From: a virus
Direction: 5' to 3' (one strand)
Virus record (IMG/VR): IMGVR_UViG_3300028025_003852
Span: 8,815-72,814 of that record
DNA length: 64,000 nt
Shown: positions 202 to 30,998 of the stretch, in pieces
Layout: every line of letters starts with the position of its first letter
Numbering within the stretch: position 1 is the stretch's first letter
Notes under the pieces: generated by a model
Databases searched by the model: none
What the model was told of the DNA's origin: nothing
Seen by the model: only the letters and a program-made list of their open reading frames with translations
Position numbers and translations under genes: made by a program

Positions 202-218
202 AGTAAAAGTATATCAGA

Positions 219-940: not shown

Positions 941-971
941 GATTAAATTATACCATAACTAATTAATTGTA

Positions 972-1847: not shown

Positions 1848-1850
1848 CTG

Positions 1851-2450
1851 CTACCACATCCAAATGTCGCCAGCCTGCAGTCCTGGAGCAGTTGGTTGGG
1901 TTGCACCAATAAAAATTCTTCTGTATCCATCAAGATTGGTAAAATCTCCACCAGCAGCTTTGTACAGTAAAGCACTTCTTGCTACCGCAGCCGTTCCATA
2001 CAAAATAGCATTATAAGAAGTTGAAGCTAGAGTGTTGCCAGCACCTGTTAAAAGTATTGCACTAGCATTTCCATTTTCAAGAACCTTTGTTGATCCATTT
2101 TCGGCAAGCATATCTGCATTGATACCATTTGATGCTGTCAAAGATCCAGTTACATTTACTGAAGAAGAAAATGTAACGCTACCACTAAAAGTTACGGTAG
2201 CTGAAGAAACGCCTACAGTAGCACCAGAAAGAGTTAGTGCACCAGAAAGAGTTAGTGCACTAGATATCGTTTGAGCTGTTGCAGTAGTTTTTTTAACTGA
2301 ATCATTAAGGTACCAGCTTACGCTTGTGTGGTAATCCTCAAATGCCTTAACAATATCTGCATCATCATCAAGGGACGGGTTTGTTACAGTAAAAAGCGGA
2401 GGTATCCCTGGTGCTGCACCTGGAATTGTTGGGGTAAAGGGTTGTGTCAT
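1851..2450 (-). CDS. Tail fibre-like minor tail protein
   Basis: S/T/G-rich beta repeats (ALTLSG x2) and C-terminal P..GDIW motif. Confidence 0.6.
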   Translation of the reverse strand: MTQPFTPTIPGAAPGIPPLFTVTNPSLDDDADIVKAFEDYHTSVSWYLNDSVKKTTATAQTISSALTLSGALTLSGATVGVSSATVTFSGSVTFSSSVNVTGSLTASNGINADMLAENGSTKVLENGNASAILLTGAGNTLASTSYNAILYGTAAVARSALLYKAAGGDFTNLDGYRRIFIGATQPTAPGLQAGDIWMW

Positions 2451-2478
2451 AGTATCACCATTATGATTATATCATAGC

Positions 2479-3231
2479 CTAAGCTACTCCAAATCTTCCC
2501 TTCGTAGCGTTAAAGTTTTCCTGTATTTCTGAACTGCTGAGTGCCTTATTATAAACGTACAAAGCACCAATTCTAGATATTGGCTCACGAGATCCTGGTG
2601 TTTGACCAGAATTAATCTTTAGTATTGAGTTATTTGTTCCTGTGCTTGTTTCTGTATTTGCAAGAGAAATATACTCTGTGTTGTTTACGTAAACTTTGCT
2701 TGATGTGGTGCTTCTTCCATTAAATGCAATCACTGATGTAACTAGAATCCAAGTATTTGTAGTAATTGAAGAAGTAGAAAGAACGTAGTAATCATTTGAT
2801 GTACCGTCCATTTGAAGGGCAAGCTGACCTTCATTGCGAAGCTGTAGAGAATATCCTGCACCAGATGTATATTTTTCAAATATTCTATCTTTATCATTAA
2901 ATGAAGATACGTCAATCCATAGTTGTAGTGTAAACACTGTGTTTGGCTCGCCCCTAGTTACCGTTGAGTCTGGGACAGAAATAAAATCGTCAACTCCATC
3001 TAGAACAAATACACCATTATTGAATAGGCTATAGTCTGTGCCATTTTGCAAAATTGCTGGCGAACTGTTTCCCTTTAGATCAAACCAGGATGTTCCAGTA
3101 CCTGGATATGAATCGGGGTAGCTAGACTCGAAATGCGAAACTAGTCCAGACTGAACAATGTTTGCAGTAAAAGGCTCAACAGTTCCAGATCGCTTACCTG
3201 CTTGAAATGATCCTGTAAATGAACTAAGCAT
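2479..3231 (-). CDS. LamG/concanavalin A-like lectin domain protein
   Basis: SYPGTGTSWFDL, LDGVDDF, YNKALSSSEIQENFNA motifs typical of phage LamG proteins. Confidence 0.75.
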   Translation of the reverse strand: MLSSFTGSFQAGKRSGTVEPFTANIVQSGLVSHFESSYPDSYPGTGTSWFDLKGNSSPAILQNGTDYSLFNNGVFVLDGVDDFISVPDSTVTRGEPNTVFTLQLWIDVSSFNDKDRIFEKYTSGAGYSLQLRNEGQLALQMDGTSNDYYVLSTSSITTNTWILVTSVIAFNGRSTTSSKVYVNNTEYISLANTETSTGTNNSILKINSGQTPGSREPISRIGALYVYNKALSSSEIQENFNATKGRFGVA

Positions 3232-3947
3232 TATCCAAACGACACTAGCTGACCAAAGACAGCGTATGCCCCTCCATTATTCAAAATACTAAAGCTGACA
3301 ATGTCCTTCTTGTTAGCATTTCCAGGTGGGACGCTACCTCCCTGCCAGTTAATTGTTTGTGCTACACCAGCAATCTGAACAGCGGTAGGAATTCTTGCAG
3401 TACCACCCTGATTTAGAATTAGTGTTACCGTGGTTGCTGAACCTGCATCAAGTGCTAGGTTTGTAAGATTGACCGTAAAGTTTGCTGAAAGATTTGTGTG
3501 ATTAAAAATATGCCCTAAAGAACAGTTATGCACAACCACACCAGTAGCTCCAGTTACGCTTGTAAATGTTTCTGAAACTTTTTTAATTTTGAGAATGCTT
3601 GGATCTATCCAGGTTACTGCATAATCTGTTGGAGACTCTTTCCCTAAGTAGAAACCAGTGGTTCCTCCTGCTGGAACACCACTTCCGCTTGCTGCAACCA
3701 ATTGCCATACGGCTGATCCAACTTGTGGAATTTGTCCAACTGTACCAGTTGCATTACGATACCATGTTGAACCATTGTATGTAACAACATTACCAATTGG
3801 ATATGTGGCTGAATTATTATAAGGACCAGAAAAAGACCAGAGTGCATTTTGTCCTGCTGGTCCTGTTGGTCCTTGAACTCCTTGTGGTCCTGCTGCACCT
3901 GTTTGTCCAGCGGAACCTGGGAATGGAACAATTTTAATTGTTGGCAT
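3231..3947 (-). CDS. Collagen-repeat tail fibre protein with carbohydrate-binding-like module
   Basis: G-X-Y repeats (GQTGAAGPQGVQGPTGPAGQ) then YNNSATYPIGNVVTYNGSTW; start chosen at MPTIK, coupled to upstream stop. Confidence 0.7.
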   Translation of the reverse strand: MPTIKIVPFPGSAGQTGAAGPQGVQGPTGPAGQNALWSFSGPYNNSATYPIGNVVTYNGSTWYRNATGTVGQIPQVGSAVWQLVAASGSGVPAGGTTGFYLGKESPTDYAVTWIDPSILKIKKVSETFTSVTGATGVVVHNCSLGHIFNHTNLSANFTVNLTNLALDAGSATTVTLILNQGGTARIPTAVQIAGVAQTINWQGGSVPPGNANKKDIVSFSILNNGGAYAVFGQLVSFG

Positions 3948-4324
3948 TATAAACTTCCTCCTGTTACGTCTCCGATAACAGTGATTGTACCAATGACAGG
4001 TGTCCAAACAGTATCATCAATAGTTACCTGGAGATCAAAAGCTAATTCTGCGACTACTGCCTTGTATCCGATTCCCCAAAATTTTGTAATTTCTGCAGGT
4101 GCCGTAATTTCTACGTATCCACTTCCTGCAGATGTTTCAAGTTCGTCTAGAACATCTCCCTTAAAATCATATGCGTATGAAGCATATTCCCAAGTTGATG
4201 TAGAATATTTTGTTACTTCGTCATCCTGTAAAAACTCTACACGAAGTACAGCGGTGTCGCCTCGAACGACAGTCCATTTCATGTTATATGGATTTGCACC
4301 AAAAATATCAGCGACGGTAGTCAT
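3947..4324 (-). CDS. Putative tail/baseplate-associated protein; paralogue of 530-940
   Basis: WTVVRGD motif; TATAAT just upstream of MTTVAD start. Confidence 0.6.
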   Translation of the reverse strand: MTTVADIFGANPYNMKWTVVRGDTAVLRVEFLQDDEVTKYSTSTWEYASYAYDFKGDVLDELETSAGSGYVEITAPAEITKFWGIGYKAVVAELAFDLQVTIDDTVWTPVIGTITVIGDVTGGSL

Positions 4325-4351
4325 AGTAATTCTATTATACACCACTAATAG

Positions 4352-4401
4352 GACTGGCACCCGAAAATAGTGGGTATGAGAGACGTTCGAGTGCCAGCCA
4401 T
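4352..4401 (-). ncRNA. Candidate hairpin antisense sRNA
   Basis: TGT-TATAAT promoter at 4414-4406; 14-bp stem with 20-nt loop complementary to the start region of ORF 53949-54155. Confidence 0.5.
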
Positions 4402-4415
4402 AATTATTATAACAT

Positions 4416-4506
4416 ATTGTAACAATTTGATAACAAAAAAATAAAAATCATTGATATATCAACACTGTTATATAATCGTTACAACATTGTTATAGAAACG
4501 TTACCA
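4416..4506. promoter_or_regulatory. Array of GTTAC/GTAAC-type half-sites at 11-bp spacing (OmpR-family MtrA/GlnR-like boxes)
   Basis: GTAAC-N6-ATAAC at 4419; GTTAC-N6-GTTAT-N6-GTTAC at 4478. Confidence 0.4.
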
Positions 4507-4619
4507 AATACATGCTCGGGGTATGCTATGGTATATAAAGATAATAGATACTAAGAAAACTCTCTCTTAGAGATAGCTTCTCAATAAAAGAAAAACAATC
4601 CGAAGGATTAAGGATAAGT

Positions 4620-4937
4620 CTATTCTTTATTAGACTTATTGTTAGATACATAGCTTATAAACATTTCTGTAAGCCTATCTATTTTTCCATCTATCTTTTC
4701 GTGGAACTGTTCTCCACGTTCATTCTGCTCTTTTAGATGAATCACATCTGTTTCAAGTCTAGTAACCTGATCCTTTATTGATGATCCACCATTTGGCTTA
4801 AGTTCATGTCTGATCTCTTCAAACTGTTCTTTGGCAAATGCCTTAATGTAGAATCTAAGAATAGCGAATAGAATTCCAGCTACTGCTGAAACGCCAATTA
4901 TGATTGCTATAATAGCTTGCCACTCTTCAATTGTCAT
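4620..4937 (-). CDS. Membrane protein with coiled coil (holin-like)
   Basis: N-terminal TM helix, PNGGSSIKDQVTRLE motif common in actinophage lysis-region proteins. Confidence 0.6.
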   Translation of the reverse strand: MTIEEWQAIIAIIIGVSAVAGILFAILRFYIKAFAKEQFEEIRHELKPNGGSSIKDQVTRLETDVIHLKEQNERGEQFHEKIDGKIDRLTEMFISYVSNNKSNKE

Positions 4938-5218
4938 GATATATTAATTATATCCTGAGTTTTTAATAAAATTACTACATGTTGTATGAAACATTCCCTG
5001 GATACACAATATACTTAATTAATCGCTCTTAAATCGCGGCGTAAAATTCGGCGGCGTATAGAGATACCAAACACATACCAAATACCACTATCTAAATATG
5101 TGTGATATCCTGGATATAACCCAGTCAAGTGCTTTCGGAAACCAGCGTAGTTGGTTCTTTAAACCAGCACAAATTTTCTCCTTATGCAGATAGGGAGATT
5201 TTTTGTTATACTATATAT

Positions 5219-5428
5219 ATGGGAAAAGTTGGAGATGATGTAAGCATATGGGATTTGCTTGATCCTAATATGCCGAGAAGTACAAGAGAACTTATGGAAT
5301 CAAGATTGGCTATTTGTTATGAATGCCCTTTCTTTTTAAAAGGATCAAAGCGATGCTCCAAATGTGGATGTTTTATGAAGCTTAAGGTTTCTCTTGAACA
5401 GGCTAAGTGTCCTATGCATAAATGGTAA
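5219..5428 (+). CDS. Small zinc-binding protein
   Basis: C..C, C..CGC, CP..KW pattern; TATACT-N6-ATG gives a leaderless start at 5219. Confidence 0.65.
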   Translation: MGKVGDDVSIWDLLDPNMPRSTRELMESRLAICYECPFFLKGSKRCSKCGCFMKLKVSLEQAKCPMHKW

Positions 5429-5488
5429 TATATCCCTTTCAGGAGCAACTGCGTTGCTAATACCTCCGAAATTTGATACAATAGATCT

Positions 5489-5668
5489 ATGACATATTAT
5501 TCAGAAATCATCAATAAAGAAATGCTTGAACAAAACTTTGTTACTCAAAGAAAGACATCAAGACAGATTGCTCGTGAGTTTCACATCTCAAGAAGAATGG
5601 TTAATAAGTATCTTCTTGACTATGGATTTATTAATGTAAAAGATTTAGAAGATAATGATCTTCCCTAG
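5489..5668 (+). CDS. Small HTH DNA-binding protein (59 aa, below ORF track cut-off)
   Basis: KTSRQIAREFHISRRMVNKYL HTH; TG-A-TACAAT-N6-ATG. Confidence 0.6.
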   Translation: MTYYSEIINKEMLEQNFVTQRKTSRQIAREFHISRRMVNKYLLDYGFINVKDLEDNDLP

Positions 5669-6079
5669 CTACCCTCTGAGATTTGTAAAATGCTAGGAGA
5701 TATCTTTGGTGGCCTTGTTGCTATAGTAGCTATCTTTGCTTTGATTGTTTATCTATCAGGATTGTACTGATCCATACCCTGGACCTTCTGAAAAATTATT
5801 GTTTTTCGATTTGGACATTTTCTGAATATTTTGTATTTGTGAACGATACACACTTTACAGTAACAATTCAAGTAAATTAGTCCGCACACTGGTATCCGCC
5901 CTGCCTCAAAAAATATTCTAATCTATTTTTAGACTTATCGGCGTGTCGCATTGTCATTGTCCGTGGTGCATGATAGGTTATAGATAACAACAAAGAATGG
6001 ATAACAAAATGGAAACAGGTTGCTACTCAGAGTGTGAGTATGTGTGTGAGTGTGTGCAGTATAAGGTAGGTGCAAGCAA

Positions 6080-6217
6080 ATGAAGTGTGAAGTGTGTGAC
6101 TACTTTGACGCTAATGAAGTCATGGTATACAAGACAGAGATACTTAACTTATCTATGGTAGTCATGTGTGACTATTGCTTTCACGAGATATTGGAGATGA
6201 AGAATGAAACGGTCTAA
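6080..6217 (+). CDS. Small CxxC..CxxC zinc-finger early protein
   Basis: MKCEVCD...MCDYCF; overlaps neighbouring mini-ORFs 6009-6083 and 6204-6335. Confidence 0.5.
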   Translation: MKCEVCDYFDANEVMVYKTEILNLSMVVMCDYCFHEILEMKNETV

Positions 6218-6380
6218 GGCGTACTATGTAACAAGGGGTATTGCTAGGGCATTGACTCTATTGGTCAAAGCATCTTTGGTTGTTGGTGTAGTGTATGTGT
6301 TTGTGTTGTTGTATTGGGGAGCATTCTATCCCTAACGGCGTGTCGCCTTGACATACCCCCAGATCCAGGGCCGGGCGGCC

Positions 6381-6389
6381 TGTGGATAA
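6381..6389 (-). promoter_or_regulatory. DnaA box
   Basis: TGTGGATAA, perfect TTATCCACA on minus strand, directly after a junction repeat. Confidence 0.55.
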
Positions 6390-6480
6390 CTATGTTACCA
6401 TTTCGTTATAAGAAACACCCTATATGGGCTTTACATTGTCCGTGGTCTGTGATAGTCTGAAGACATAAGATAAAGAAACA

Positions 6481-6538
6481 GAGAGAGTGAGCCTAGCAAA
6501 TAAGGTCGCAAGACATGAGCCTAGCAAATAAATCTCTC
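6481..6538 (+). ncRNA. Candidate structured 5' leader with symmetric internal repeat
   Basis: GAGAGA/TCTCTC outer stem, two copies of TGAGCCTAGCAAATAA, GTC-GCAA-GAC hairpin between them. Confidence 0.5.
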
Positions 6539-6560
6539 AATAAAGAATAGGAAATAGAAA

Positions 6561-6755
6561 ATGACATTAGCAGAAACAGGAATCAAGCAAGACTTGACTA
6601 TCGGTAACGTGGTTGCCATTAGCCGTAAAGGTGTAATTCGTGCAAGCGGAATCATCGAATCAGTAAAGCAAATTAACCAAGACCGCTTTGACGTAACTTT
6701 CACTAACGGAAAGACTGAGTCAATGGTATGGGGAAAGACGCTCACCGTAGTTTGA
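6561..6755 (+). CDS. Small early protein, SH3/KOW-like
   Basis: 64 aa ORF downstream of promoter 6437. Confidence 0.6.
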   Translation: MTLAETGIKQDLTIGNVVAISRKGVIRASGIIESVKQINQDRFDVTFTNGKTESMVWGKTLTVV

Positions 6756-6802
6756 GTGTCAGACCCTCATGTTAGAATAAAAACAACAAGAAAGGAAAAC
6801 TA

Positions 6803-6946
6803 ATGTATATTGTAGAAGTAATCAAGAAGGGAGTCGGAGTCGTTGAGACTTTCGGCTCACGGTCTAAGGCAGAAGCAGAAGCACAAAAGAACGCTTATGC
6901 TCTCATGTATCCTGACCATGTAGTAATGATTGAATGGAGTAACTAA
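6803..6946 (+). CDS. Small early hypothetical protein
   Basis: GAAAGGA RBS and own promoter at 6757. Confidence 0.6.
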   Translation: MYIVEVIKKGVGVVETFGSRSKAEAEAQKNAYALMYPDHVVMIEWSN

Positions 6947-7000
6947 CGGCGTGTCGGCTTGACATACCCTGGCAATCGGGGGCCGGGCGATCCGGCCGCC

Positions 7001-7009
7001 TGTGGATAA
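7001..7009 (-). promoter_or_regulatory. DnaA box
   Basis: TGTGGATAA in the same context as 6381. Confidence 0.55.
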
Positions 7010-7112
7010 CTATTTACGAGAATTATTCTACGAGGCGGAAAACTATGCCCTAAAAACTTTTCACTGTCCGTCGCCCATGTTAGAATGAAGACGTAAAGAA
7101 AGGTAAACTAAA

Positions 7113-7292
7113 ATGGAAATCAAAGAAATCAGAAAGAACGGAATCGGAAACGGTTTCTCAGTAATCAACCCTCAAGATGGGTTCCGCAAGGATAACACCA
7201 TCTGGAATGGCACTTGCTCAGAGTGTGGTGAACGAGTGTATAACTCAGTAATGACTAAGTATGAGTGGAAACACCAGACCAAGTGTGTTTGA
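7113..7292 (+). CDS. Small early protein, putative metal-binding (CxxC, H..C)
   Basis: GAAAGG RBS, promoter at 7065. Confidence 0.6.
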   Translation: MEIKEIRKNGIGNGFSVINPQDGFRKDNTIWNGTCSECGERVYNSVMTKYEWKHQTKCV

Positions 7293-7341
7293 CTGTCTGA
7301 GGCTACTGCTAAAATAAAGACATAAAGAAAGGATAACTAAA

Positions 7342-7464
7342 ATGAAAGAATGTTTCTTGTGTGATGAGGGCACTACTGCCACTACTGTATCACCATACAA
7401 CTACCCCGTTTGTGCTAGCCACTACAGCGAAGACATCCGTGAATTCGCTACCGACTACTCATAG
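7342..7464 (+). CDS. Small early protein, CxxC/CxxH
   Basis: GAAAGGA RBS, promoter at 7294. Confidence 0.55.
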   Translation: MKECFLCDEGTTATTVSPYNYPVCASHYSEDIREFATDYS

Positions 7465-7495
7465 ACAATAACCAACAACGAAAGGTAAAACTAAA

Positions 7496-7657
7496 ATGAC
7501 AAATCACGAACGTATCTCTGGAATCTTAGAGACAATTCGAATTGCAAAGGGTGCAGAGTCTCACTCTGACGTTATGCCCTATGTGATAGGCATGATGACC
7601 GCCGTCCTCAACGACTCACAGCTTGAGGCTATGGAAGAGGTAGCCAAGCAATACTAA
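7496..7657 (+). CDS. Small early hypothetical protein
   Basis: GAAAGG RBS; ends just before a junction repeat. Confidence 0.55.
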   Translation: MTNHERISGILETIRIAKGAESHSDVMPYVIGMMTAVLNDSQLEAMEEVAKQY

Positions 7658-7810
7658 CATATTCCAGAAATGGAATGTGGGGCCGGTTGATCCGGCCGCC
7701 CCTCTTCCTATTTACGAAGGCTATTAAAAACCCTGGACTTTTGACCGCTGGACTTTTCACTGTCCGACGTATCTGTTATTCTTGTATTACAAACAACGAA
7801 AGGATAACTA

Positions 7811-7999
7811 ATGCGATTCGACCCTATTTTTGGTGAGGCTAACGAGATTGTTGGCTACCTCGACGACATGGGCAACGAGTGGACTGTCGAGCAGGTCGAG
7901 GACTACTGGGATGTCTCGGGCAACGAGCCTGACGGCATGTGGCTTGATGAGGACGCTCTCAACTCTATCGGCTGGGGTAGCGACGAGGCTTACTTCTAA
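7811..7999 (+). CDS. Small, highly acidic early protein
   Basis: GAAAGGA RBS; D/E-rich with a single basic residue. Confidence 0.65.
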   Translation: MRFDPIFGEANEIVGYLDDMGNEWTVEQVEDYWDVSGNEPDGMWLDEDALNSIGWGSDEAYF

Positions 8000-8113
8000 A
8001 CTACCCAAAGGGGGGCCGGGGGCCGTTATCAAATCGTTACATTGGATTACGTACATTACGTTTTCACTGTCAGTCGCTCGTGTTATTCTTGTATTACAAC
8101 GAAAGGAAAACTA

Positions 8114-8281
8114 ATGGACAAGCAAATACTGGTATCGGTTTGGGTGCTCAATCAGTGGGCAGAAAACGCTCGTGTTGAGCAGGAGTACTGGATTGAGAAC
8201 AACAACGACGGATTGGCAGGCTACTTCGGTGGTCGGGCTGCTGCCTATGAGTTTTTACTCGCTGAGTATGCCAAAGACTAG
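8114..8281 (+). CDS. Small early hypothetical protein
   Basis: GAAAGGA RBS before MDKQ; promoter at 8068. Confidence 0.6.
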   Translation: MDKQILVSVWVLNQWAENARVEQEYWIENNNDGLAGYFGGRAAAYEFLLAEYAKD

Positions 8282-8335
8282 TGTCATAGGCTACTGCTAA
8301 ACTAAAACTAACAACAACGAAAAGGACACAATAAA

Positions 8336-8521
8336 ATGATGACACGCAAAGACTATGTTTCAACTGCTAAGATTCTCAATGACCTTTGGCTTGATTTGCC
8401 AATCAGTAACATTGACCTGTTTGAGGATACCGTTATGGCTTTCTCTAAAATGTTTGCAGAAGATAACGAACGATTCGACCACAAGATTTTTTATAACGCT
8501 TGTTTCAAGGAGGAATACTAA
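8336..8521 (+). CDS. Small conserved phage protein (MTRKDY...DNERFD..F..AC)
   Basis: RBS, promoter at 8282; motif familiar from phage early regions. Confidence 0.65.
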   Translation: MMTRKDYVSTAKILNDLWLDLPISNIDLFEDTVMAFSKMFAEDNERFDHKIFYNACFKEEY

Positions 8522-8737
8522 TGAACCTGGTACCATTGTTTGCTGTAATGTTTGGGCTACTCGTAATCAATACCGTGATTATTTTGTACCTGTTGGCTAA
8601 ATACAAAGAAGCCAAGCATGAGGCACAGATAAACCGACCACCCTTCTAGGAGGGCCGGACGATCTTCGTTATAAAGTTGTTACGAAGACCTTACGAAACG
8701 CCCTGGAAATGTCCGAGGTATCTGCTAAGATTAGTAT

Positions 8738-8905
8738 ATGAAGAAAAAGACCAAGCACAAAGCAACAGAAAACAAAGCCTACATCGAGGCTATGCGTGAG
8801 TTGCGTCGCTCCAATGCGGCTACTGCCCATGACAACCGACCTAACCGTCAACGCACTCGTGGTGCAGTCAAGGCTCATGCTATTGGAGAATACAAGGCTC
8901 TGTAA
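8738..8905 (+). CDS. Small basic protein (ELRRSNAA motif), leaderless, stop inside tRNA-Asp
   Basis: TAAGAT-N6-ATG; 55 aa. Confidence 0.6.
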   Translation: MKKKTKHKATENKAYIEAMRELRRSNAATAHDNRPNRQRTRGAVKAHAIGEYKAL

Positions 8906-8971
8906 CTCAGTGGTTAGAGTGCCACCCTGTCACGGTGGAAGTCGCCAGTTCAAGTCTGGTCAGAGTCGCCA
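8896..8971 (+). tRNA. tRNA-Asp(GTC)
   Basis: Cloverleaf GGCTCTG/CAGAGTC, anticodon loop CTGTCAC, TTCAAGT T-loop, encoded CCA. Confidence 0.92.
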
Positions 8972-8972
8972 A

Positions 8973-9047
8973 TCCCCTTTAGCTCAACGGCAGAGCAACG
9001 AGCTGTTAACTCGTAGGTTCTTGGTTCGAATCCAAGAGGGGGAGCCA
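8973..9047 (+). tRNA. tRNA-Asn(GTT)
   Basis: Cloverleaf TCCCCTT/AGGGGGA, anticodon loop CTGTTAA, GGTTCGAATCC, encoded CCA. Confidence 0.92.
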
Positions 9048-9118
9048 GGATCCGGCCCCACCTTTTCACTGTCAGTCGTAGGTGTTACGATAGTATTACA
9101 AACGAAAGGAAATTAGCC

Positions 9119-9298
9119 GTGGCTTATGTGTCTGAGTATGGTAACTATGGTGGTGAGGGAGTAATTGTATTCCCAGACTATCAACTTACCCCTGAACAAT
9201 GGGATGAATTAGATATTCTTCCAGACAACGACAAGATGTCGTATGTTAAGCGTATTTTTGATGAAAACGAGTTTGGATATATGGAGTTTAACGACTGA
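9119..9298 (+). CDS. Small acidic early protein (GTG start), first of an overlapping mini-ORF run to 9836
   Basis: GAAAGGA RBS, promoter at 9070; coupled ORFs at 9298-9477 and 9474-9617. Confidence 0.55.
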   Translation: MAYVSEYGNYGGEGVIVFPDYQLTPEQWDELDILPDNDKMSYVKRIFDENEFGYMEFND

Positions 9299-9626
9299 TG
9301 AAACGTGAATCATACATTCCACCCAAGGGAATCTCAGAAAAAGAGTTCCTCACAATAGTTGCAAATGACCTAGTAGATATGCTAGTCTTAAAAGAGGTAG
9401 ACTTTACCTATGTTCCAAGTGTTCGTGACTTCATTGTCAAGTATTCCAAATCCCGACACCGAAAGGGTAGAAAATGAGAAGCAATCCATTCCCCGAAGAT
9501 GAACAGGCTACCGAAATCATGGAAGCCCTAGACGACTACTATGCAAATCCTCAAGAGTATTCATTCCGTGACCTTGAGGAAATCTTCCAAGACCGTGACC
9601 CATTCGAGTTTCTCTAAGGAGTAGTA

Positions 9627-9836
9627 ATGCCCAAGTATCGCATAAAGGCGACGGTAACGGTAGAGATGAACCTACCTGACGACTTCGACCCCAATAGGGA
9701 TAACGAAGGAGACATTCTCTATTCCCTTGATGGATACATTCGTGAAGATGGTGTAGACGGTTGGAGACTGTGGAAGGCCGCATTGGCTGACAATGGTATG
9801 TGGCACAATGACGCAGACTATAAAATCGTAGAATGA
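9627..9836 (+). CDS. Small early hypothetical protein
   Basis: AAGGAG RBS; 69 aa. Confidence 0.6.
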   Translation: MPKYRIKATVTVEMNLPDDFDPNRDNEGDILYSLDGYIREDGVDGWRLWKAALADNGMWHNDADYKIVE

Positions 9837-10210
9837 ACATACCCCTAATTGTTATAACAGGGTTTGTATGCTTTGTGGTTTTCTTTCCGCTAATTGCTTA
9901 TATCTTTTATGCCGTCGAGGTTTTGAGTTATAAGTTTGGTAACAAGGTTGACGATACAGCAAATTTGGAGGACTAGGGGGGCCGGGCCGCTTTCACTGTC
10001 AGAGGTGCGTGTCATAATGGTATTACAACGAAAGGAAAAATTATGCCGAATATGAAACTCATCCCCACTCGTGCAGGATATGTCTATGAGTGTGTTGAGT
10101 GTGACTTTCAACTCACACCTGAGCAAGCAGACGAACACGAATGTATGACCGTCTTTAGTTTTTAGTGTCAGACGCTACTGTTAGAATAAGAGAAACGAAA
10201 GGAAAACGCA

Positions 10211-10705
10211 ATGGGCTTGGATATGTATTTAGAGGTTCGCAAGTTTGTCGAAACCCACGATTGGGTAAACGAGAATGGCGAGTTTGTTCGTAAGGAAACT
10301 CCAGGAGCAGAGGCTATCAAGGTTGCAGGTCTTGAGAACCTTACTTCTAAAGAGGCTGTTGGCATTACTGTTCAGACTACCGCTGTCTACTGGCGTAAGG
10401 TCAACGCTATCCACAACTGGTTTGTAAATGTCTGTGCTAATGGTGTAGACGAGTGTCAGCAGATTCCTGTAAAGCGTGAGAACCTGCAAGCCTTGCGTGA
10501 CCAAGTAGAATTGGTTGTTCGCAAAAAGAATCCAGCAGTTGCTCAAGAGTTTTTGCCAACCTCATCAGGTTTCTTCTTTGGCTCAACTGAGTATGACGAG
10601 TGGTATTGGTCAGATATGCAATTCACTCTTGATGAACTCAACCGTGTGTTGTCTGAGACGGTAGACGACTATGGGATTGACTTCTTCTATCAGGCTTCTT
10701 GGTAA
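10211..10705 (+). CDS. Conserved phage protein (MGLDMYL / YWRK.N.IH.WF / GFFFGS family)
   Basis: Recognisable motifs, RBS, promoter at 10166. Confidence 0.75.
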   Translation: MGLDMYLEVRKFVETHDWVNENGEFVRKETPGAEAIKVAGLENLTSKEAVGITVQTTAVYWRKVNAIHNWFVNVCANGVDECQQIPVKRENLQALRDQVELVVRKKNPAVAQEFLPTSSGFFFGSTEYDEWYWSDMQFTLDELNRVLSETVDDYGIDFFYQASW

Positions 10706-10710
10706 CAAGA

Positions 10711-10735
10711 CGAGGGGTGCGACTCGATAACGCAT
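10711..10735 (+). ncRNA. H-type pseudoknot (variant)
   Basis: S1 CGAG/CTCG, 8-nt loop, S2 GTGCG/CGCAT. Confidence 0.4.
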
Positions 10736-10804
10736 AACCCTTCGGGGGCCGGGCCGCTTGATCTTGCAACTTTCACTGTCCGTGGCTACTGTTAGTATAA
10801 GTAT

Positions 10805-11527
10805 ATGACAAAGTTGATTCGCTCAAAAGACCGTAAAGTAACCAACGCTGTAACGCCTAACGGCAAGCAAGCCTCTATCGCTAACACTTTTGGTTTGCCT
10901 TCTGGCACTGCCTTCTCATGTCCAGGTGCTACTAGCGTATGCGAGACTATCTGCTATGCTGGCAAGTTGGAAAAGGTATTCAAGGGTGTGCGTATCAACC
11001 TAGAGCACAACTGGGCATTGGTCAAAGACGCTGACTATCTTACTATCTACGACCTTCTCTATGAAATGATTAGCGATTTTGTTTCTGATTGCGAACGTCG
11101 TGGTGCAGAAAAGTTATTCCGCATTCACTGGGACGGTGACTTCTTTAATGAAGAATACACCTATGCATGGCGTGATGTGATTTGTGAGTTTGAGGATGTG
11201 CAATTCTGGGCATACACTCGTAGTGCTTTCGCTGTGCCTATCCTAATTGACATTCCTAACCTTGGCTTCTATTTCTCAACTGATAGTGCCAACAAGGATT
11301 TGGCTATCTCTCTCAAAGAGACTCACGGTATCAAGTTGGCATACCTTGCTCAGACGTTTGCTATTGGTAAGGCTGACATTCTTGAGATTACTGGGCAGAC
11401 TGCTATTCCATGCCCCGAAAATAACAAAAAGATTCCTATGATTAGCGAGAAGGGTAGTGCCTGTGTGACCTGTGGGCAATGTATCTTCCAACGCAATGAT
11501 ATCCTGTTTTCTGCTACAAAGAAGTAG
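10805..11527 (+). CDS. Gp88-like protein, radical-SAM-like Cys motif
   Basis: SCPGAT..C...CYA, FRIHWDGDFF, FWAYTRS, C-terminal CP..C..C..C; leaderless start. Confidence 0.7.
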   Translation: MTKLIRSKDRKVTNAVTPNGKQASIANTFGLPSGTAFSCPGATSVCETICYAGKLEKVFKGVRINLEHNWALVKDADYLTIYDLLYEMISDFVSDCERRGAEKLFRIHWDGDFFNEEYTYAWRDVICEFEDVQFWAYTRSAFAVPILIDIPNLGFYFSTDSANKDLAISLKETHGIKLAYLAQTFAIGKADILEITGQTAIPCPENNKKIPMISEKGSACVTCGQCIFQRNDILFSATKK

Positions 11528-11702
11528 CGGAGGGCAGGGCCGGGTGATCCGGCCGCCCACCCCCAATGTAACAATTAGGTTACGATAGGCTGAAAATAGC
11601 CCCTAGGACTTGATATTGTGTGTGTTTTCTGTCATACTTGATATATCAGCAAGACCGCTGGTAATTAGGTTGGCTGGCTCGCCAACAGAAATGAGGAAGC
11701 AA

Positions 11703-11849
11703 ATGGGTAACATCAACATTGGAGACACCTTCACCACGCAGAAGTCTGGCGTATCGGGAACGGTTCAGGAAATCATCAAGAACGCAAACGGTTCTACTCG
11801 TATTCGCCTGTCGGTGAACGGTGCAGACCGTTGGACTACGGTCAAGTAA
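11703..11849 (+). CDS. Small SH3-like early protein
   Basis: GAGG RBS; IGDTFTTQKSGVSGTVQEI. Confidence 0.6.
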   Translation: MGNINIGDTFTTQKSGVSGTVQEIIKNANGSTRIRLSVNGADRWTTVK

Positions 11850-11865
11850 GGTCAGACCCTAGTCT

Positions 11866-11894
11866 GTCTGCTGGGCATCAGATAAAACTGCCCA
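11866..11894 (+). ncRNA. H-type pseudoknot
   Basis: S1 GTCTG/CAGAT, loop CTGGGCAT, S2 TGGGCA/TGCCCA. Confidence 0.55.
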
Positions 11895-11928
11895 CTCAAA
11901 TCCAAAAGCCAAATGAAAGGAAAACATA

Positions 11929-12378
11929 ATGGCTCGTTCACTTGCTGTGAAGATTCCCACCGCTACACTTATTGCTGACATTGAGGCAAGCATCGCTGAC
12001 ATTGAGGCTAAGGTTGCTACATACCCTGCCGACATGGAAGCATACCGTAAGGCACAGAAGGCACACCAACAGACTGTTCTCAAGACTGTTATTGAGGCTC
12101 TCAAGAACCCCGACAACATTGGCGAAGAGTATGGCTCAATCGTTCGTGTTCAGCAAAACCGTTATGGTAATGGTAATGTAGAGATTTCGGTAAACACGGA
12201 ACTGCTCTCTGTCCCACAGCCTCCCGAGTGTCCCTCTAACCCAAATGCCAAAGAGTCGTTTGGTCGTGACTACACTAGCCGTCTTGAGTTGCTGAAGAAG
12301 AACCTGAAGGTTCTCAAGATGACAAACCAAGAGGAAGTCAACGCCTCCACCTACAACACGGTGATTGACCTCCTCTAG
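11929..12378 (+). CDS. Early hypothetical protein
   Basis: 149 aa, GAAAGGA RBS. Confidence 0.7.
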   Translation: MARSLAVKIPTATLIADIEASIADIEAKVATYPADMEAYRKAQKAHQQTVLKTVIEALKNPDNIGEEYGSIVRVQQNRYGNGNVEISVNTELLSVPQPPECPSNPNAKESFGRDYTSRLELLKKNLKVLKMTNQEEVNASTYNTVIDLL

Positions 12379-12412
12379 ACTCCATACGCCCCGAAAGGGA
12401 TATGTGGAAAAT

Positions 12413-12440
12413 GACCTGAGCAGGTCTATGTAAACTGCTC
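12413..12440 (+). ncRNA. H-type pseudoknot
   Basis: S1 GAC/GTC, loop CTGAGCAG, S2 GAGCA/TGCTC. Confidence 0.55.
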
Positions 12441-12599
12441 GCCCTCTCCCCTGTGAAGCGTCTGGATAGATTGCTGGTAAACAGGGGAGGGGAGCCGGGT
12501 AGATCAGATCCGGCCCCGAATATAACAAATTAGTTACGATGTTATAAAAAAATAGGCCTAAAACTTGATATTGTCAGAGGTATCTGCCATACTGGGAAT

Positions 12600-12815
12600 A
12601 TGGAAAAAGTAAAGGGAACGTATTTTGTTGTGACTGGTGAGTCTTACTATGTGAAGGCTGACTCTGAGGAAGAGGCTGAGGCTGTCTTCAATGTAGGTAT
12701 GGGATATATGGATGAGCATAACTATCCTGACTTTGATACCGCCGATGCTTTCAGCCGTATCGAGTATACCGATACCTACACTACCTATGAGCCTATCACT
12801 GATTTCAGTGTCTGA
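12600..12815 (+). CDS. Small acidic early protein, leaderless
   Basis: CATACT-N6-ATG; V.A.SEEEA motif. Confidence 0.6.
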   Translation: MEKVKGTYFVVTGESYYVKADSEEEAEAVFNVGMGYMDEHNYPDFDTADAFSRIEYTDTYTTYEPITDFSV

Positions 12816-12854
12816 GGCTACTGTTACACTAAAGATACAACGAAAGGGAAAAGA

Positions 12855-13112
12855 ATGATTGACAAAGCATTTGGTTTGCAGGAAGCGGCTCGTAAGTCTG
12901 CTTTCGCTCCGTCTGTAAAGTTGTCTGCTCTGATTATCCGTGATGGATACCAGAACATGACACAGCAAGAAATGGAAAAGGCTCTCATAGAACTTGTGTC
13001 TGAGGCTGTTGTCGTTTCTTCCTACCACACTACGATGGTTCTTCTTGATGAGGAAGACCAGAACACACTCGCAACAACGATTGACGAACTACAAGAAATG
13101 GGGAACAACTAA
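12855..13112 (+). CDS. Early hypothetical protein
   Basis: GAAAGGG RBS, promoter at 12809. Confidence 0.6.
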   Translation: MIDKAFGLQEAARKSAFAPSVKLSALIIRDGYQNMTQQEMEKALIELVSEAVVVSSYHTTMVLLDEEDQNTLATTIDELQEMGNN

Positions 13113-13600
13113 TGTTGGACTATGAGAACATTGAAGTAAAAGATTTGCCACCGTCGCCTATCGAGCAGGGTACCCTTATCGGTATCGCTGTCGATACTAA
13201 GATTGAGGAACTTCAGAAAGAACTTGAGGGTGTCAAGGCAGAACTGGATGCCTCTCGTGCAAACGCTGATGACTGGCGTAACCGTCAGACATCTATGTAT
13301 AACCAACTTGGTGAAATGCAGGACAGACTCAAGGGTATCCTGACTGAACTGGTCAACTCTGGTTCCATTGAAAAGGAATACGCAAAGACCATTGCAGACC
13401 ACTGTGGCATTGAGGTTACTCGTTACATTGGTGTGTCTGGAAATATCACATTCTCTGCAAATGTCGAGGTATCGGTATTCGATGAAGATGACTTGGATAC
13501 ACACAACTTCAGTGCAACATACCTGTGCCTTGAGTATCAGGGTGAAGATGTCATTGACTTGAACTATGACATTGAGAACGTTGAAGAGGACTACAGTTAG
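13112..13600 (+). CDS. Acidic coiled-coil early protein
   Basis: 162 aa, coupled to upstream gene. Confidence 0.65.
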   Translation: MLDYENIEVKDLPPSPIEQGTLIGIAVDTKIEELQKELEGVKAELDASRANADDWRNRQTSMYNQLGEMQDRLKGILTELVNSGSIEKEYAKTIADHCGIEVTRYIGVSGNITFSANVEVSVFDEDDLDTHNFSATYLCLEYQGEDVIDLNYDIENVEEDYS

Positions 13601-13657
13601 TAGGCCTAATAGCTAGGGTAGGGACTTGTTAATTCCTTTCTTAGCCTCTACCCTCAC

Positions 13658-13685
13658 GGACCTGAGCATGTCCTTAAAAGGCTCA
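13658..13685 (+). ncRNA. H-type pseudoknot
   Basis: S1 GGAC/GTCC, loop CTGAGCAT, S2 TGAGC/GCTCA. Confidence 0.55.
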
Positions 13686-13832
13686 TTCTCATACCCAGGG
13701 GGGCCGGGCCGATCCGGCCGCCATTGTAACAATTGGGTTACGAACACCTAAAAATACCACCTAGGACTTGTAATTATCTTGTATCTGTGTCATACTGATA
13801 TAAGTAAACAAACCTCTAACGAAAGGCAACAT

Positions 13833-14852
13833 ATGCACGAATTGGAACAGGGCAAGAACGGCGAGGTTGCTTTTGCATCTTTCCGTGAGCCTGCTTGGCA
13901 TGGTCTTGGGACTGTGTTCGAGGAAGAAGTAAAGACGGCAGATATGCTGAAGTTGGCACACCTTGATAATTGGAATGTTCGTCTTGAGGAGATTCCTATT
14001 CCCGAGGGATTTGTCTCTGACAAGACTAACTATTTTGTTGCTCGCACTAACCCCTTCAACTCTGAGCAGAACGACATTCTTGGAATCGTTGGGCAACGCT
14101 ACAATACGCTTCAGAACGAATCACTGTTTGAGTTTGGTGACAACCTGCTAGACGGTGGTGGTCGTTGGGAGACGGCTGGCTCTATCAAGGGTGGTCGTGT
14201 TGTGTTCGGTGCTTTGGCACTTGAGCGTGAAACGGTGCTTGACCCTAATGGTGTGGCTGACAAGGTAAACACTTACCTTCTTGTCAACACATCGCACGAT
14301 GGGTCGGTGTCCATTATGGCGAGCATCACGCCTGTGCGTGTCGTGTGTGCGAACACTCTGAACATGGCTATCGGTTCAGGCACAGGTCACTGGCGTAGTG
14401 CTAAGCAGTCGTTCAAGATTCGTCACACTCAGACAGCCGAGGGTCGTGTTCAGGCTGCTCGTGAGGCTTTGGGTCTTGCCAATGACTACATGGATGAGTT
14501 TGACAAGATGGCTCAGGCTATGATTGAGACAGAAATCACGAATGACCAATTCCAGGAGATTCTTCGTGCAGTCTACCCCATGCCCGAAAAGGATGCTAAG
14601 GGTGCTATGTCAAAGTGGCAGACAAAGTTGGAACTCATCGAGGACATCTACGGTGGACAGTTCAACGACACGATTGCTGGAACGGCTTGGGGTGCATTGA
14701 ACGGCATCACCGAACGTCTTGACTGGTATCGTGCAGGACGCAAGGGCAACAGCGAAAGCGTGTTGGCTTCTGCTTCTGGCTTCGACCCTGCTATCAACGC
14801 TGAGAAGAATCGTATTCTCAAGATTGTTCAGGAACTCACAATGGCTTCCTAG
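13833..14852 (+). CDS. DUF932 family phage/plasmid protein (TIGR03299-like)
   Basis: PAWHGLG, ETAGSIKGG, NTSHDGS, TPVRVVCANTL, GTAWGALN motifs; GAAAGG RBS before MHELE. Confidence 0.85.
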   Translation: MHELEQGKNGEVAFASFREPAWHGLGTVFEEEVKTADMLKLAHLDNWNVRLEEIPIPEGFVSDKTNYFVARTNPFNSEQNDILGIVGQRYNTLQNESLFEFGDNLLDGGGRWETAGSIKGGRVVFGALALERETVLDPNGVADKVNTYLLVNTSHDGSVSIMASITPVRVVCANTLNMAIGSGTGHWRSAKQSFKIRHTQTAEGRVQAAREALGLANDYMDEFDKMAQAMIETEITNDQFQEILRAVYPMPEKDAKGAMSKWQTKLELIEDIYGGQFNDTIAGTAWGALNGITERLDWYRAGRKGNSESVLASASGFDPAINAEKNRILKIVQELTMAS

Positions 14853-15421
14853 TCGGTGACTCCCTGCCCTCCCTTGTGGAGGGTGGGGGGCCGGGTGATC
14901 AGATCCGGACTCTACTTAGTATATACATTCATTATATTTGTATTACGATGAAGTAAAAAATACGCCAGATTACGAATAGGTAACAATCACCCTGAAAAGT
15001 TGCATGTCAACCATGTTTTCTGTCATACTGAATATATGAATGAATTTGAGATAGCGATGCAAGTTGTATTGTCAGAGGCTCTTGATAAACTAGAGTCTAT
15101 ACCAGATGAAGAAATCGAAAGGTTGTATATATCCTAATGGGAATTTACTATGTTAAGACTGTTGTAGAGTTTGGTGGAGAAGTTATGGCTGATACCGCCG
15201 AGGAAGCAGAGAAACTTGGATGGCACTGGGATACTGAATTGCAGTATGACGGAGTCTACTCAATCGATGTAGAAGTTGTTGACGAGGATAACGATGAGGA
15301 GGACACCGAATGATGAAGGTATCGGAAGTGGAGCGTCTTATCGGTAATGCGTTCCCCAACATGCATGTGTTTGTAGATAAGAACAACGAGATTATTGTTT
15401 GCACAGGAGAGGAAGCAATCG

Positions 15422-15583
15422 ATGAGTAAGTATTCAATTAAGGTAGAACAAATTGGACATACCGTTGTAGAGGTTGAGGCTGAAGATGAGTTTCAGGCTG
15501 AAGACATTGCAATGGAGATGTGGGGCAATGGTGAACTTGACCATCTCTTTATCTTTGATGTAGAACTAATTGTGGATAACTAA
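15422..15583 (+). CDS. Small acidic protein (VEVEAEDE..A motif)
   Basis: GAGG RBS before MSKYS. Confidence 0.5.
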   Translation: MSKYSIKVEQIGHTVVEVEAEDEFQAEDIAMEMWGNGELDHLFIFDVELIVDN

Positions 15584-15816
15584 TGCGTATGCCAAAGGTA
15601 GCCGACCAAACTTGGAGGCGAATCTACCATTCCAGGGTAGCAGAGGTATACGAATCAGATAACGAGAACGACTACTACAAGGTAGTACTAGAAGGTATGC
15701 GACCAAAGTATTTCTATGGTGAGTTAGGCTTTCAGAATTACCAACGCTATGTGTATGACTTTGAGATGGCTACCCTGTATTCACAGGACAACGCCATGAT
15801 GAAGAAGTATCGGTAG
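15583..15816 (+). CDS. Hypothetical protein
   Basis: 77 aa coupled ORF. Confidence 0.55.
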   Translation: MRMPKVADQTWRRIYHSRVAEVYESDNENDYYKVVLEGMRPKYFYGELGFQNYQRYVYDFEMATLYSQDNAMMKKYR

Positions 15817-15833
15817 GCGTGGTAAAATAGAAT

Positions 15834-16067
15834 ATGACACCAACTATTTATACTAAGCCTAACTGTGTACAGTGTGATGCAACCAAACGTTACTTTGATA
15901 ACAAAGGTGTGGCCTACACTACCGTCGATATTACACAGGATGCGGACGCACTCGATCTACTTATTGCCGAGGGATTCAAGTCAGCTCCTGTTGTTAATAT
16001 AGATACACACTGGTGGAGTGGATTCCAACCAGACTTAATAGATAAACACATCGCTAACTATTCTTAG
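15834..16067 (+). CDS. nrdH: NrdH glutaredoxin-like protein
   Basis: TIYTKPNCVQCDATKR...SAPVV...WSGFQPD. Confidence 0.92.
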   Translation: MTPTIYTKPNCVQCDATKRYFDNKGVAYTTVDITQDADALDLLIAEGFKSAPVVNIDTHWWSGFQPDLIDKHIANYS

Positions 16068-16095
16068 TGTCCGACGCTAATGGTAAGGTGGTAAC

Positions 16096-17962: not shown

Positions 17963-18027
17963 TGTGCATAAAATGTGGATAAAATGTGCATAAGTTGTTC
18001 ACAATATGTGCATATCCCTGTGCATAA
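17963..18027. promoter_or_regulatory. Cluster of six DnaA-box-like 9-mers (origin-like or datA-like)
   Basis: TGTGCATAA 17963, TGTGGATAA 17974, TGTGCATAA 17985, TTGTTCACA 17995, TGTGCATAT 18007, TGTGCATAA 18019. Confidence 0.65.
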
Positions 18028-19346: not shown

Positions 19347-19638
19347 GTACACACACACCTTCCAAATGTAAAATCGACAGGGCATTCAATGTGGTAGCCT
19401 GTCATACACCACCCACTAGGGAGTCTTTCACTTTTTCTTGCCATAATCAATTATACAATATGCAGATGGTGTTGTCAATATGTACTGCGTGTCGCAGTTG
19501 GTGTCTCTACATACCGCCGAGCTATCGCCGTGCGAACTTGCGTGTGCTAAAATTATTATATGGTATGTAATAGATGTAAGGACAAGGTCGAAGAGTTATG
19601 GATCGATCTTTGCGAACAATGTGTTAAGGATGTACAAG

Positions 19639-30460: not shown

Positions 30461-30721
30461 TTAATCAATTGCCTTTCTGGTAATTTGTACAACAGCACCA
30501 TTATCTTCTAGTGCATGTTTTACTTTGAATAGGTATCTTACTGCTTCGATCTTGCCATCGTAGTCCAGTCGCATAAACGCCTGCTCGTCAGCAATAATCT
30601 CTAAGAACAATAATACACCATTATCACTGTGTTCCGCAATAGCTACCCCAAAATTTTTTGGAGGATGAATTGAGTGAACCGCCCTACGCATTTCATTTGT
30701 GTAAAAACTAATCTCAGTCAT
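30461..30721 (-). CDS. Hypothetical protein
   Basis: 86 aa in operon. Confidence 0.6.
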   Translation of the reverse strand: MTEISFYTNEMRRAVHSIHPPKNFGVAIAEHSDNGVLLFLEIIADEQAFMRLDYDGKIEAVRYLFKVKHALEDNGAVVQITRKAID

Positions 30722-30998
30722 TTGTCAGATTCCTCCACGTTTCTGCCCAATCCTGTTTCGATCTATGAGAGTTAAACTCTTTTGATATTTTTCCATTTTC
30801 TAGGTATACCCCACCCCAGACACCCCACTCTTTATTTGAGACACCTGTGGCAAAACACATTCTGCGTACTGGGCATTCTGAACAAACCTTATCTACTGCA
30901 AGTCTAAAACTTTCATTCTCTTCATACTTATCAAAGAATATGTTAGTGTCATAGCCTAGGCATTTAGCGTTGTCTCTCCAAGTGTGGTCACTTTGCAT
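30714..30998 (-). CDS. whiB: WhiB-family Fe-S transcription factor
   Basis: W...AKC...FF...CSECPVRRMC...GVWGG. Confidence 0.9.
   Translation of the reverse strand: MQSDHTWRDNAKCLGYDTNIFFDKYEENESFRLAVDKVCSECPVRRMCFATGVSNKEWGVWGGVYLENGKISKEFNSHRSKQDWAETWRNLTND

Follow-up and report, generated by a model that had tools for sequence, protein, structure and literature searches.

Putative promoters with a relaxed PafBC-type box in a gene island of an actinophage

Promoters of the PafBC type have so far been described only for host DNA-repair genes. Could a phage carry them too? The question is raised by an uncultured freshwater phage (IMG/VR virus record IMGVR_UViG_3300028025_003852). In a 64-kb stretch of that record (the window, by which we mean all of the 64,000 nucleotides analysed), a sequence-only reading had picked out 16 promoters resembling those read by the host DNA-damage activator PafBC, which are known as RecA-NDp or recA P1-type promoters. 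They lie in a gene island that runs from 5958 to ~16.1 kb. The PafBC motif found in vivo is tGTCgg(N10)tA(N3)T, with the 5' part, the -26 element, at -23 to -28 and no -35 consensus; the lower-case letters, those after GTC among them, are at most 50% conserved, and the GTC triplet, read via two guanines, is strictly conserved among actinobacteria (PMC8635444). An older RecA-NDp consensus is given as tTGTCRgtg-8nt-TannnT (PMC5656591). Do the phage sites form a real array, and is PafBC what reads them?

We searched for TGTC-N9-TG-N-YANNNT, that is, TGTC, an extended -10 (TGn) and YAnnnT. The window holds 19 matches, 17 of them on the + strand between 5958 and 16089; 100 dinucleotide-preserving shuffles of the window gave a mean of 1.77 and a maximum of 8, and 19 was never reached. 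Across the whole 72.8-kb contig there were 17 forward and 2 reverse matches, the remaining 8.8 kb contributing no extra site. TGTC is forced by this pattern, and the case for nonchance placement rests on an offset control, which is independent of the spacing chosen in the sequence-only reading. The island has 48 TGNYANNNT sites on its + strand, and we scanned offsets 4 to 39 from their TG. At 17 of them, TGTC started 13 nt upstream of TG; it appeared at most once at every other offset. At the same 13-nt offset, it was found at 0 of 198 sites on the rest of the + strand and at 2 of 236 on the whole - strand. The motif array is therefore confirmed, by its excess over the shuffles and by its single fixed offset to the -10. 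All 16 sites counted earlier are present; the pattern yields a 17th, at 15070, that had not been counted and that may be an internal promoter or a coding coincidence.

Conservation extends to letters that the pattern leaves free. Numbering from the first T of TGTC as 0, we found T at -6 in 16/17 sites and A at -2 in 17/17; on the other side stand G at +5 (16/17), A/T at +6 and G/C at +7 (both 17/17), G at +8 (16/17) and C/T at +9 (17/17). At the fifth position of the box stand C (7 sites), A (8) and T (2) and never G, so that the absence of TGTCGG, remarked on earlier, holds throughout; TGTCAT occurs only at 8282. With the transcript start taken 7 nt after the -10, the box, TGTC-H-G-W-S-G-Y, spans -28 to -19 and its 6-nt part spans -28 to -23. 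The -10 hexamer is TAnnnT at 15 sites and CAnnnT at 2, and it lies 10 nt from the 6-nt box in 17/17. TGn precedes it in 17/17, as the pattern dictates; dropping the TG from the pattern gains just two island sites, both intragenic.

Many of these promoters had also been credited with a canonical -35. The hexamers named, TTTTCA (four times), TTGTCA, TTTACA and TTGATA, are indeed found one base 5' of the box, along with others, and the -35-like hexamer matches TTGACA at a mean of 3.29/6 positions versus a background of 1.55. "Canonical" was an overstatement: the hexamer is mostly TTTTCA, it begins with TTG at the 17-nt spacing in only 2/17 cases, and a generic sigma-70 scan recovers only 2/17 box promoters. 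That scan finds 12 promoter-like sites in the island versus 17.6 in shuffles, which is no excess.

Are the sites promoters at all? A GC-rich hairpin without a T tract stands 25 to 50 nt upstream of most of them. At 12/17 sites, the -10 is followed by a 17- to 26-nt leader with a GAAAGGA ribosome site and then ATG or GTG; promoters 5958 and 6437 have ~95-nt leaders to the first open reading frame (ORF) of at least 30 amino acids (aa), and site 15070 has a 39-nt leader in which no ribosome site was found. Promoter and leader are conserved as a ~60-nt unit that includes the ribosome site. At 8710, 10777, 12572, and 16068, and also at the box-less promoter 15000, an ATG lies exactly 7 nt after the -10 (Table 1). 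Leaderless starts are common in actinobacteria, and the placement of these five ATGs would imply leaderless mRNAs. An ATG at this distance fixes the transcript start from sequence alone, and the earlier proposal of a start ~7 nt after the -10 agrees, as far as sequence can tell, with the four box sites and 15000. Leaderless-type starts are more numerous in a relative of the phage, G002. We conclude that the box sites have the surroundings of real promoters and that the island is apparently an array of ~20 short transcription units in a lytic-looking actinophage. Each unit would comprise a promoter, a short or absent leader, one to a few small genes, and mostly a GC-rich hairpin at the end.

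What kind of phage is this, and what is its host? The contig, rated 67% complete, encodes DnaE, primase, DnaB, SSB, RecA, class I ribonucleotide reductase, ThyX and tail proteins, and a WhiB-family gene outside the island. The Pfam WhiB model matched 1/14 control genomes, that of Corynebacterium glutamicum. DnaE is 53 to 55% identical to those of Streptomyces phages of the Stanwilliamsviridae, with which the window shares the gene order primase-SSB-DnaE-pyrophosphatase-RecA, and the GP88-family protein of the island shares 55% identity with its counterparts in L5-like Mycobacterium phages. A nucleotide search against cultured phages gave no match at the near setting and only the GP88 gene and tRNAs at the distant one. 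By these likenesses, the phage is a WhiB-encoding relative of the Stanwilliamsviridae Streptomyces phages, that is, an actinophage. Because it has a WhiB gene and actinophage relatives, its host is very probably an actinobacterium.

Three routes to a more precise host were tried and rejected. The 1392-aa tail protein has relatives encoded on contigs of metagenome bins whose titles are Methylococcus, Acidimicrobiaceae (2 contigs), Chitinophagaceae, and Acetobacteraceae. The Acidimicrobiaceae bin contains two WhiB genes 65 to 67% identical to the phage WhiB, and its own DNA has 69 to 72% GC versus 33 to 35% in the phage-like contigs. The titles name four unrelated bacterial groups, and we took all these placements to be mis-binning and not host evidence. 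One metagenome bin holds at least four related-phage contigs at 33 to 35% GC versus ~70% in its own DNA, and we consider the bins that hold such contigs (L051 to L055; contigs C69 and C75 of G006) to be contaminated by them. WhiB likeness gave bacterial matches at most 45% identical, and look-alikes of a PaaA-like protein encoded in the window (score 0.86) came from mixed phyla and gave no lead. Parts of the island were found in 24 DNA runs, whose labels are freshwater, aquatic, subsurface or plain metagenome; among the runs listed as containing such parts, none was an RNA run.

How does the array fare in relatives? We found these by scanning viral contigs with the phage's own promoter word and counted the general pattern over each whole record. 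There were 17 forward and 1 reverse matches in G001, 20 and 0 in G002, and 19 and 0 in G003; two unrelated contigs had 1 and 3 (G004) and 2 and 0 (G005). The DnaE of G002 is 83% identical to that of the window, and the WhiB of G003 is 64% identical to the phage WhiB. The full 8-mer TGTC[AG]GTG occurs at 15/20 sites in G002 and at 1/16 in G001. The -35-like hexamer of G002 is weaker than that of the window (mean match, 2.70 versus 3.29; examples are CCTCAA, ATCTCG, and CCTAGA). By these letters, the G002 promoters have the published PafBC architecture, with box and -10 and no -35. At matching promoters, the fifth box letter is C in the window, A in G001 and G in G002, and the rest of the box is unchanged; the counterparts of promoter 10777 in two relatives read TGTCAG and TGTCGG.

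Three island promoters (11610, 13768, and 15000) lack the box, and all three have a TTGnnn -35, whereas their G002 counterparts keep TGTCRGTGG. Hence, box and -35 trade off within one phage group. The two elements seem to behave as interchangeable parts, with the window at the hybrid end of the range. A second scan word, TGTCAGTGG-N4-TGNTANNNT, gave at least 164 stretches, many contigs having 2 to 7 copies. From the matches listed, we took 34 contigs, 17 multi-copy and 17 single-copy. WhiB was present in 7/9 of those that are at least 60% complete, including 3/3 at 90% or more. Among the matches listed, five large relatives (97 to 112 kb) have 9 to 14 forward sites, mostly in one block, with the box variants TGTCAGTGG, TGTCAGACCCC, TGTCAGCCC and TGTCGGTAGG. 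In the 112-kb relative (G147), box promoters stand at both ends of the record (175-8501 and 110498-112347); its island may span the assembly break point or lie in a terminal repeat.

We then asked whether the box goes with PafC in bacteria. Our sample comprised 121 genomes from the phylum of one actinobacterial bin (G006), and its tallies include genomes flagged unpublished (G010, G027, G057, G091, G097, and G129). RecA was found in 119/121, and a strong PafC match (Pfam HTH_PafC, E <=1e-10) in 73/121, one per genome, 5 of the 73 being flagged. At that threshold, 1/14 control genomes matched, again C. glutamicum. DNA upstream of recA was taken from 50 genomes, none flagged: 30 with 400 nt before the RecA domain and 20 with an 801-nt stretch around the gene start. 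TGTC-N12-YAnnnT lay upstream of recA in 20/26 PafC-positive genomes versus 0/24 PafC-negative ones (Fisher 5e-9, uncorrected for relatedness). Since the recA box was present only in PafC-positive genomes, we conclude that the box goes with PafC. In high-GC genomes, the recA boxes are TGTCAGTGGC or TGTCGGTGGC, the same words as the phage boxes of G002; other lineages have TGTCAC... or TGTCGC.... In hosts, as in phages, the flanks of the box differ from lineage to lineage.

How might the island be transcribed? Mycobacterial PafBC sits between the promoter and sigma domain 4, which is called "sigma adaptation." PafBC is switched on by single-stranded DNA (PMC11804915). We judge it somewhat better than an even bet that the host RNA polymerase reads the island promoters and that PafBC binds their box. 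The polymerase, with its housekeeping sigma, would read the promoters, and PafBC, once bound to single-stranded DNA, would dock on the box and strengthen or gate initiation. The extended -10 and partial -35 would allow some firing in the absence of PafBC and stronger firing in its presence. There may thus be two modes, basal and induced, as the joint presence of weak -35, extended -10 and box would allow. Single-stranded DNA could be supplied by phage DNA entry, by replication or by host nuclease attack. The earlier proposal of a PafBC link is partly supported: promoter geometry, the actinophage identity, a relative with the full box and the link between box and PafC speak for it. The relaxed box speaks against it, and the canonical -35 that it included is not borne out.

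Other observations also weigh against a role for PafBC. TGTC[AG]GTG, the full consensus, is present at 0/17 sites in the window, and the fifth letter is never G. Because an extended -10 can function in the absence of both a -35 and an activator, the phage promoters could be active independently of the box. In the genome sample, 48/121 had no strong PafC match, and in G014, G116, G073, and G028 (1.3 to 1.6 Mb, 0.43 to 0.48 GC at recA) none of PafC, Pup ligase and WYL was matched and recA lacked the box, whereas all three proteins were matched in a 7.5-Mb control genome. If the host is of this streamlined, low-GC kind, the proposal fails; three small genomes of the sample are nevertheless PafC-positive (G013, G029, and G055; 1.5 to 1.8 Mb). 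No host was identified by binning, by WhiB likeness or by look-alikes of the PaaA-like protein. Cultured relatives are not enriched in the pattern (BillNye, 0 forward and 2 reverse; Annadreamy, 0 forward and 3 reverse), and the Streptomyces phage Paradiddles has the spacer element TG(T/C)CC(T/C) together with proper TTGnnn -35s.

Perhaps, then, another protein reads the box, either a phage protein, early or virion-borne, that activates or later shuts off these promoters, or a different host regulator? We think this rather unlikely. A factor that co-evolves with the phage would fit the divergence of the box between close phages (TGTC-H-G-W-S-G here versus TGTC-R-G-T-G-G in G002) and the variants TGTCAGACCCC, TGTCAGCCC and TGTCGGTAGG among the relatives listed. 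Its gene could lie in the missing third of a genome of which the contig holds 67%, and the Paradiddles spacer element, with its reverse complement after terminators, looks phage-specific. Yet at 15/20 G002 sites the box is letter for letter that of host recA, and a phage-made activator could not start the first genes unless it was injected. We found no DNA-binding family among the 38 ORFs in and beside the island, on a contig from which a third of the phage genome is missing, and no WYL-domain gene in the four contigs G000 to G003. WhiA was rejected as a candidate reader, since a G giving GTGTC is present in only 5/17 sites. As for the phage WhiB, DNA contact at -26 is not known for any protein of the WhiB family.

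A plainer explanation, which we consider improbable, is that these are extended -10 promoters of the housekeeping sigma whose box goes unread and is kept by descent, through cassette copying, or as a favourable spacer. In its favour are the conservation of promoter and leader as one ~60-nt unit, ribosome site included, the presence of TGn at all sites, and three promoters that presumably work with no box. Against it, the letters beside the box vary freely and TGTC, G at +5 and G at +8 are kept at 16 to 17 of 17 sites; matching promoters of three phages differ in the fifth letter (C, A or G) and agree in the remaining letters of the box; and relatives with a diverged -35 region have nevertheless kept the box. 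Very improbable, in our estimate, is that the ~20 sites in each genome copy serve as a PafBC sponge that blunts the host damage response or PafBC-controlled defences, with transcription secondary. The number of sites per genome would suit a sponge, and Rafique et al., in 2025, reportedly linked pafBC to mycobacteriophage resistance, as relayed in a citing paper (PMC12848934). A pure decoy would not need what we observe: every box keeps precisely the spacing to a -10 that a promoter has, and a gene or a leaderless ATG follows it.

If PafBC does read the box, how far does this go? We tentatively put forward, as a possibility on the doubtful side, that this phage family uses the host's single-stranded-DNA alarm, PafBC, as an infection sensor that fires a block of takeover genes. 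With it comes, just as tentatively, a natural promoter series running from pure PafBC-type promoters (box, no -35) through hybrids such as those of the window to ordinary -35 promoters, box and -35 recruiting the same polymerase. A host stress activator would then trigger phage gene expression, and DNA-damage sensing, anti-phage nuclease attack, and phage takeover would be linked in actinobacteria. Each phage would offer ~20 natural promoter variants, and the family hundreds, from which to learn what a PafBC promoter needs; the box could also help to predict hosts, with PafBC-positive lineages expected. In the literature on PafBC and phages, covered mostly at the level of abstracts, we found no published description of phage promoters of the PafBC type. 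What seems new here is the hybrid promoter form, with a relaxed box and a partial -35, and the trade-off between box and -35 across close relatives.

Are the island genes early genes, as the sequence-only reading had it? Outside the island, there are three perfect TTGACA promoters with a 17-nt spacer, all on the - strand (Table 1). Given these, the island design is a separate promoter class, the phage uses at least two classes, and the island genes need not be expressed first. Early expression of the island is suggested by analogy.

Several other elements accompany the island. Perfect TTATCCACA words, which we take to be the DnaA-box consensus, occur at 6381-6389, 7001-7009, 15571-15579, and 17974-17982 on the - strand and at 41028-41036 on the + strand; two of them directly follow the first two terminator hairpins of the island. 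An 18-nt repeat, GGCGTGTCG(C/G)(C/A)TTG(A/T)CAT, lies at 5940-5957, 6337-6354, and 6948-6965 (+), two copies between a stop codon and a hairpin and the third abutting the first promoter. Within the repeat, TGTC-N5-GACA presents the 4-letter core of the box as an inverted pair, and G001 and G002 keep GGCGTGTCG before their first promoter. A palindrome, GTAACAATT(A/G)GGTTAC, at 11568-11583 and 13726-13741, stands between hairpin and promoter in two box-less units. Both in the window and in G002, GTTAC/TTACGA-like words precede many island promoters by 35 to 70 nt and may be sites for another regulator. Away from the island, a PaaA/PaaC-family di-iron oxygenase-like gene (33105-34145, - strand; Pfam E 6e-93) sits among three to five glycosyltransferase genes (25.3 to 29.6 kb and 35.1 to 36.2 kb); these genes might serve DNA or cell-surface modification.

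Table 1. Putative promoters, hairpins and other features, in window coordinates
Feature	Position	Strand	Sequence and context
Box promoter	5958..5979	+	TGTCCG, N7, TGa, TAGGTT; TTGTCA one base upstream; first promoter of the island
Box promoter	6437..6458	+	TGTCCG...TGaTAGTCT; TTTACA upstream; after hairpin 6353-6391
Box promoter	6757..6778	+	TGTCAGACCC...TGtTAGAAT; 18-nt leader, ATG 6803
Box promoter	7065..7086	+	TTTTCAc TGTCCG...TGtTAGAAT; 20-nt leader, ATG 7113
Box promoter	7294..7315	+	TGTCTG...TGcTAAAAT; leader, ATG 7342
Box promoter	7761..7782	+	TTTTCAc TGTCCG...TGtTATTCT; leader, ATG 7811
Box promoter	8068..8089	+	TTTTCAc TGTCAG...TGtTATTCT; leader, ATG 8114
Box promoter	8282..8303	+	TGTCAT...TGcTAAACT (sole TGTCAT); leader, ATG 8336
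Box promoter	8710..8731	+	TGTCCG...TGcTAAGAT; leaderless, ATG 8738, 7 nt after -10
Box promoter	9070..9091	+	TTTTCAc TGTCAG...TGtTACGAT; just 3' of two tRNA genes; leader, GTG 9119
Box promoter	9997..10018	+	TGTCAG...TGtCATAAT; leader, ATG 10043
Box promoter	10166..10187	+	TGTCAG...TGtTAGAAT; leader, ATG 10211 (164 aa)
Box promoter	10777..10798	+	TGTCCGTGGC...TGtTAGTAT; leaderless, ATG 10805 (GP88-family protein, 240 aa)
Box promoter, good -35	12572..12593	+	TTGATAt TGTCAG...TGcCATACT; leaderless, ATG 12600
Box promoter	12809..12830	+	TGTCTG...TGtTACACT; leader, ATG 12855
17th pattern match	15070..15091	+	Within small ORF 15036-15137, whose coding sequence is conserved in relatives
Box promoter	16068..16089	+	TGTCCG...TGgTAAGGT; leaderless, ATG 16096; head of + strand gene run to ~18.2 kb
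Box-less promoter	11610..11638	+	TTGATA, 17 nt, CATACT; TGTGTG in box position; G002 counterpart with TGTCGGTGG
Box-less promoter	13768..13796	+	TTGTAA, 17 nt, CATACT; TATCTT in box position; upstream of DUF932 gene; G002 counterpart with TGTCGGTGG
Promoter without correctly placed box	15000..15029	+	TTGCAT, 18 nt, CATACT; leaderless, ATG 15036; G002 counterpart with TGTCAGTGG
GC-rich hairpin without T tract, probable terminator	6353..6391	+	Overlaps - strand TTATCCACA box
GC-rich hairpin, probable terminator	6965..7016	+	Overlaps - strand TTATCCACA box
GC-rich hairpin	7665..7716	+	Next promoter 45 nt on
GC-rich hairpin	11522..11573	+	-22 kcal/mol; precedes promoter 11610
GC-rich hairpin	13686..13738	+	-23 kcal/mol; precedes promoter 13768
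tRNA-Asp(GTC) and tRNA-Asn(GTT)	8896..9047	+	In island, downstream of promoter 8710
WhiB-family gene	30714..30998	-	Outside island; marker of an actinobacterial host
TTGACA/TATAAT promoter	19450-19478	-	Outside island
TTGACA/TAAAAT promoter	23996-24024	-	Outside island
TTGACA/TATAAT promoter	52239-52267	-	Outside island; before primase gene (primase-SSB-DnaE genes)

Which known systems does the island resemble? The host-takeover blocks of SPO1 and the pre-early region of T5 gather many small genes, each behind a strong early promoter, in one block. The block of small genes is alike; the promoters of SPO1 and T5 are ordinary strong housekeeping-sigma promoters that involve no host stress activator. 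The large cluster BE Streptomyces phages of the Stanwilliamsviridae, such as Paradiddles, are a related family with the same replication gene order as the window phage. The early promoter arrays in the terminal repeats of Paradiddles likewise belong to a block of many small genes; a GC-rich hairpin and then a promoter of its own, with TGn and a TAGACT-type -10, precede each gene. The promoters of Paradiddles differ in their proper -35s and in a spacer element that is TG(T/C)CC(T/C) and not TGTCRG. In the Paradiddles arrays (L012, 1 to 10 kb), CGGACA, the reverse complement of TGTCCG, follows nearly every terminator, ~60 nt upstream.

A parallel in mechanism would be the middle promoters of T4, which T4 serves with adaptor proteins of its own. 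There, a MotA box near -30 replaces the -35, and with AsiA, in "sigma appropriation," an adaptor bridges DNA and sigma domain 4, much as is proposed for PafBC here. In contrast to T4, no phage adaptor was found in our case, and the box equals the site of a host activator. Work on PafBC itself names the T4 middle promoters as a related case (PMC8635444).

A further comparison is with the host PafBC promoters themselves. As in these, the GTC box of the phage sites lies at -28 to -23, 10 nt before the -10 hexamer, in 17/17 cases, and it is nonpalindromic and present in a single copy. The differences are of three kinds. The phage box has C, A or T as its fifth letter and W-S-G in place of T-G after the G. 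All phage sites have an extended -10 and most a partial -35, whereas host PafBC promoters are described as having no -35. Finally, the sites lie on phage DNA, in an array of ~20. By its letters and its position, the box of the window is best described as a relaxed variant of the PafBC box.

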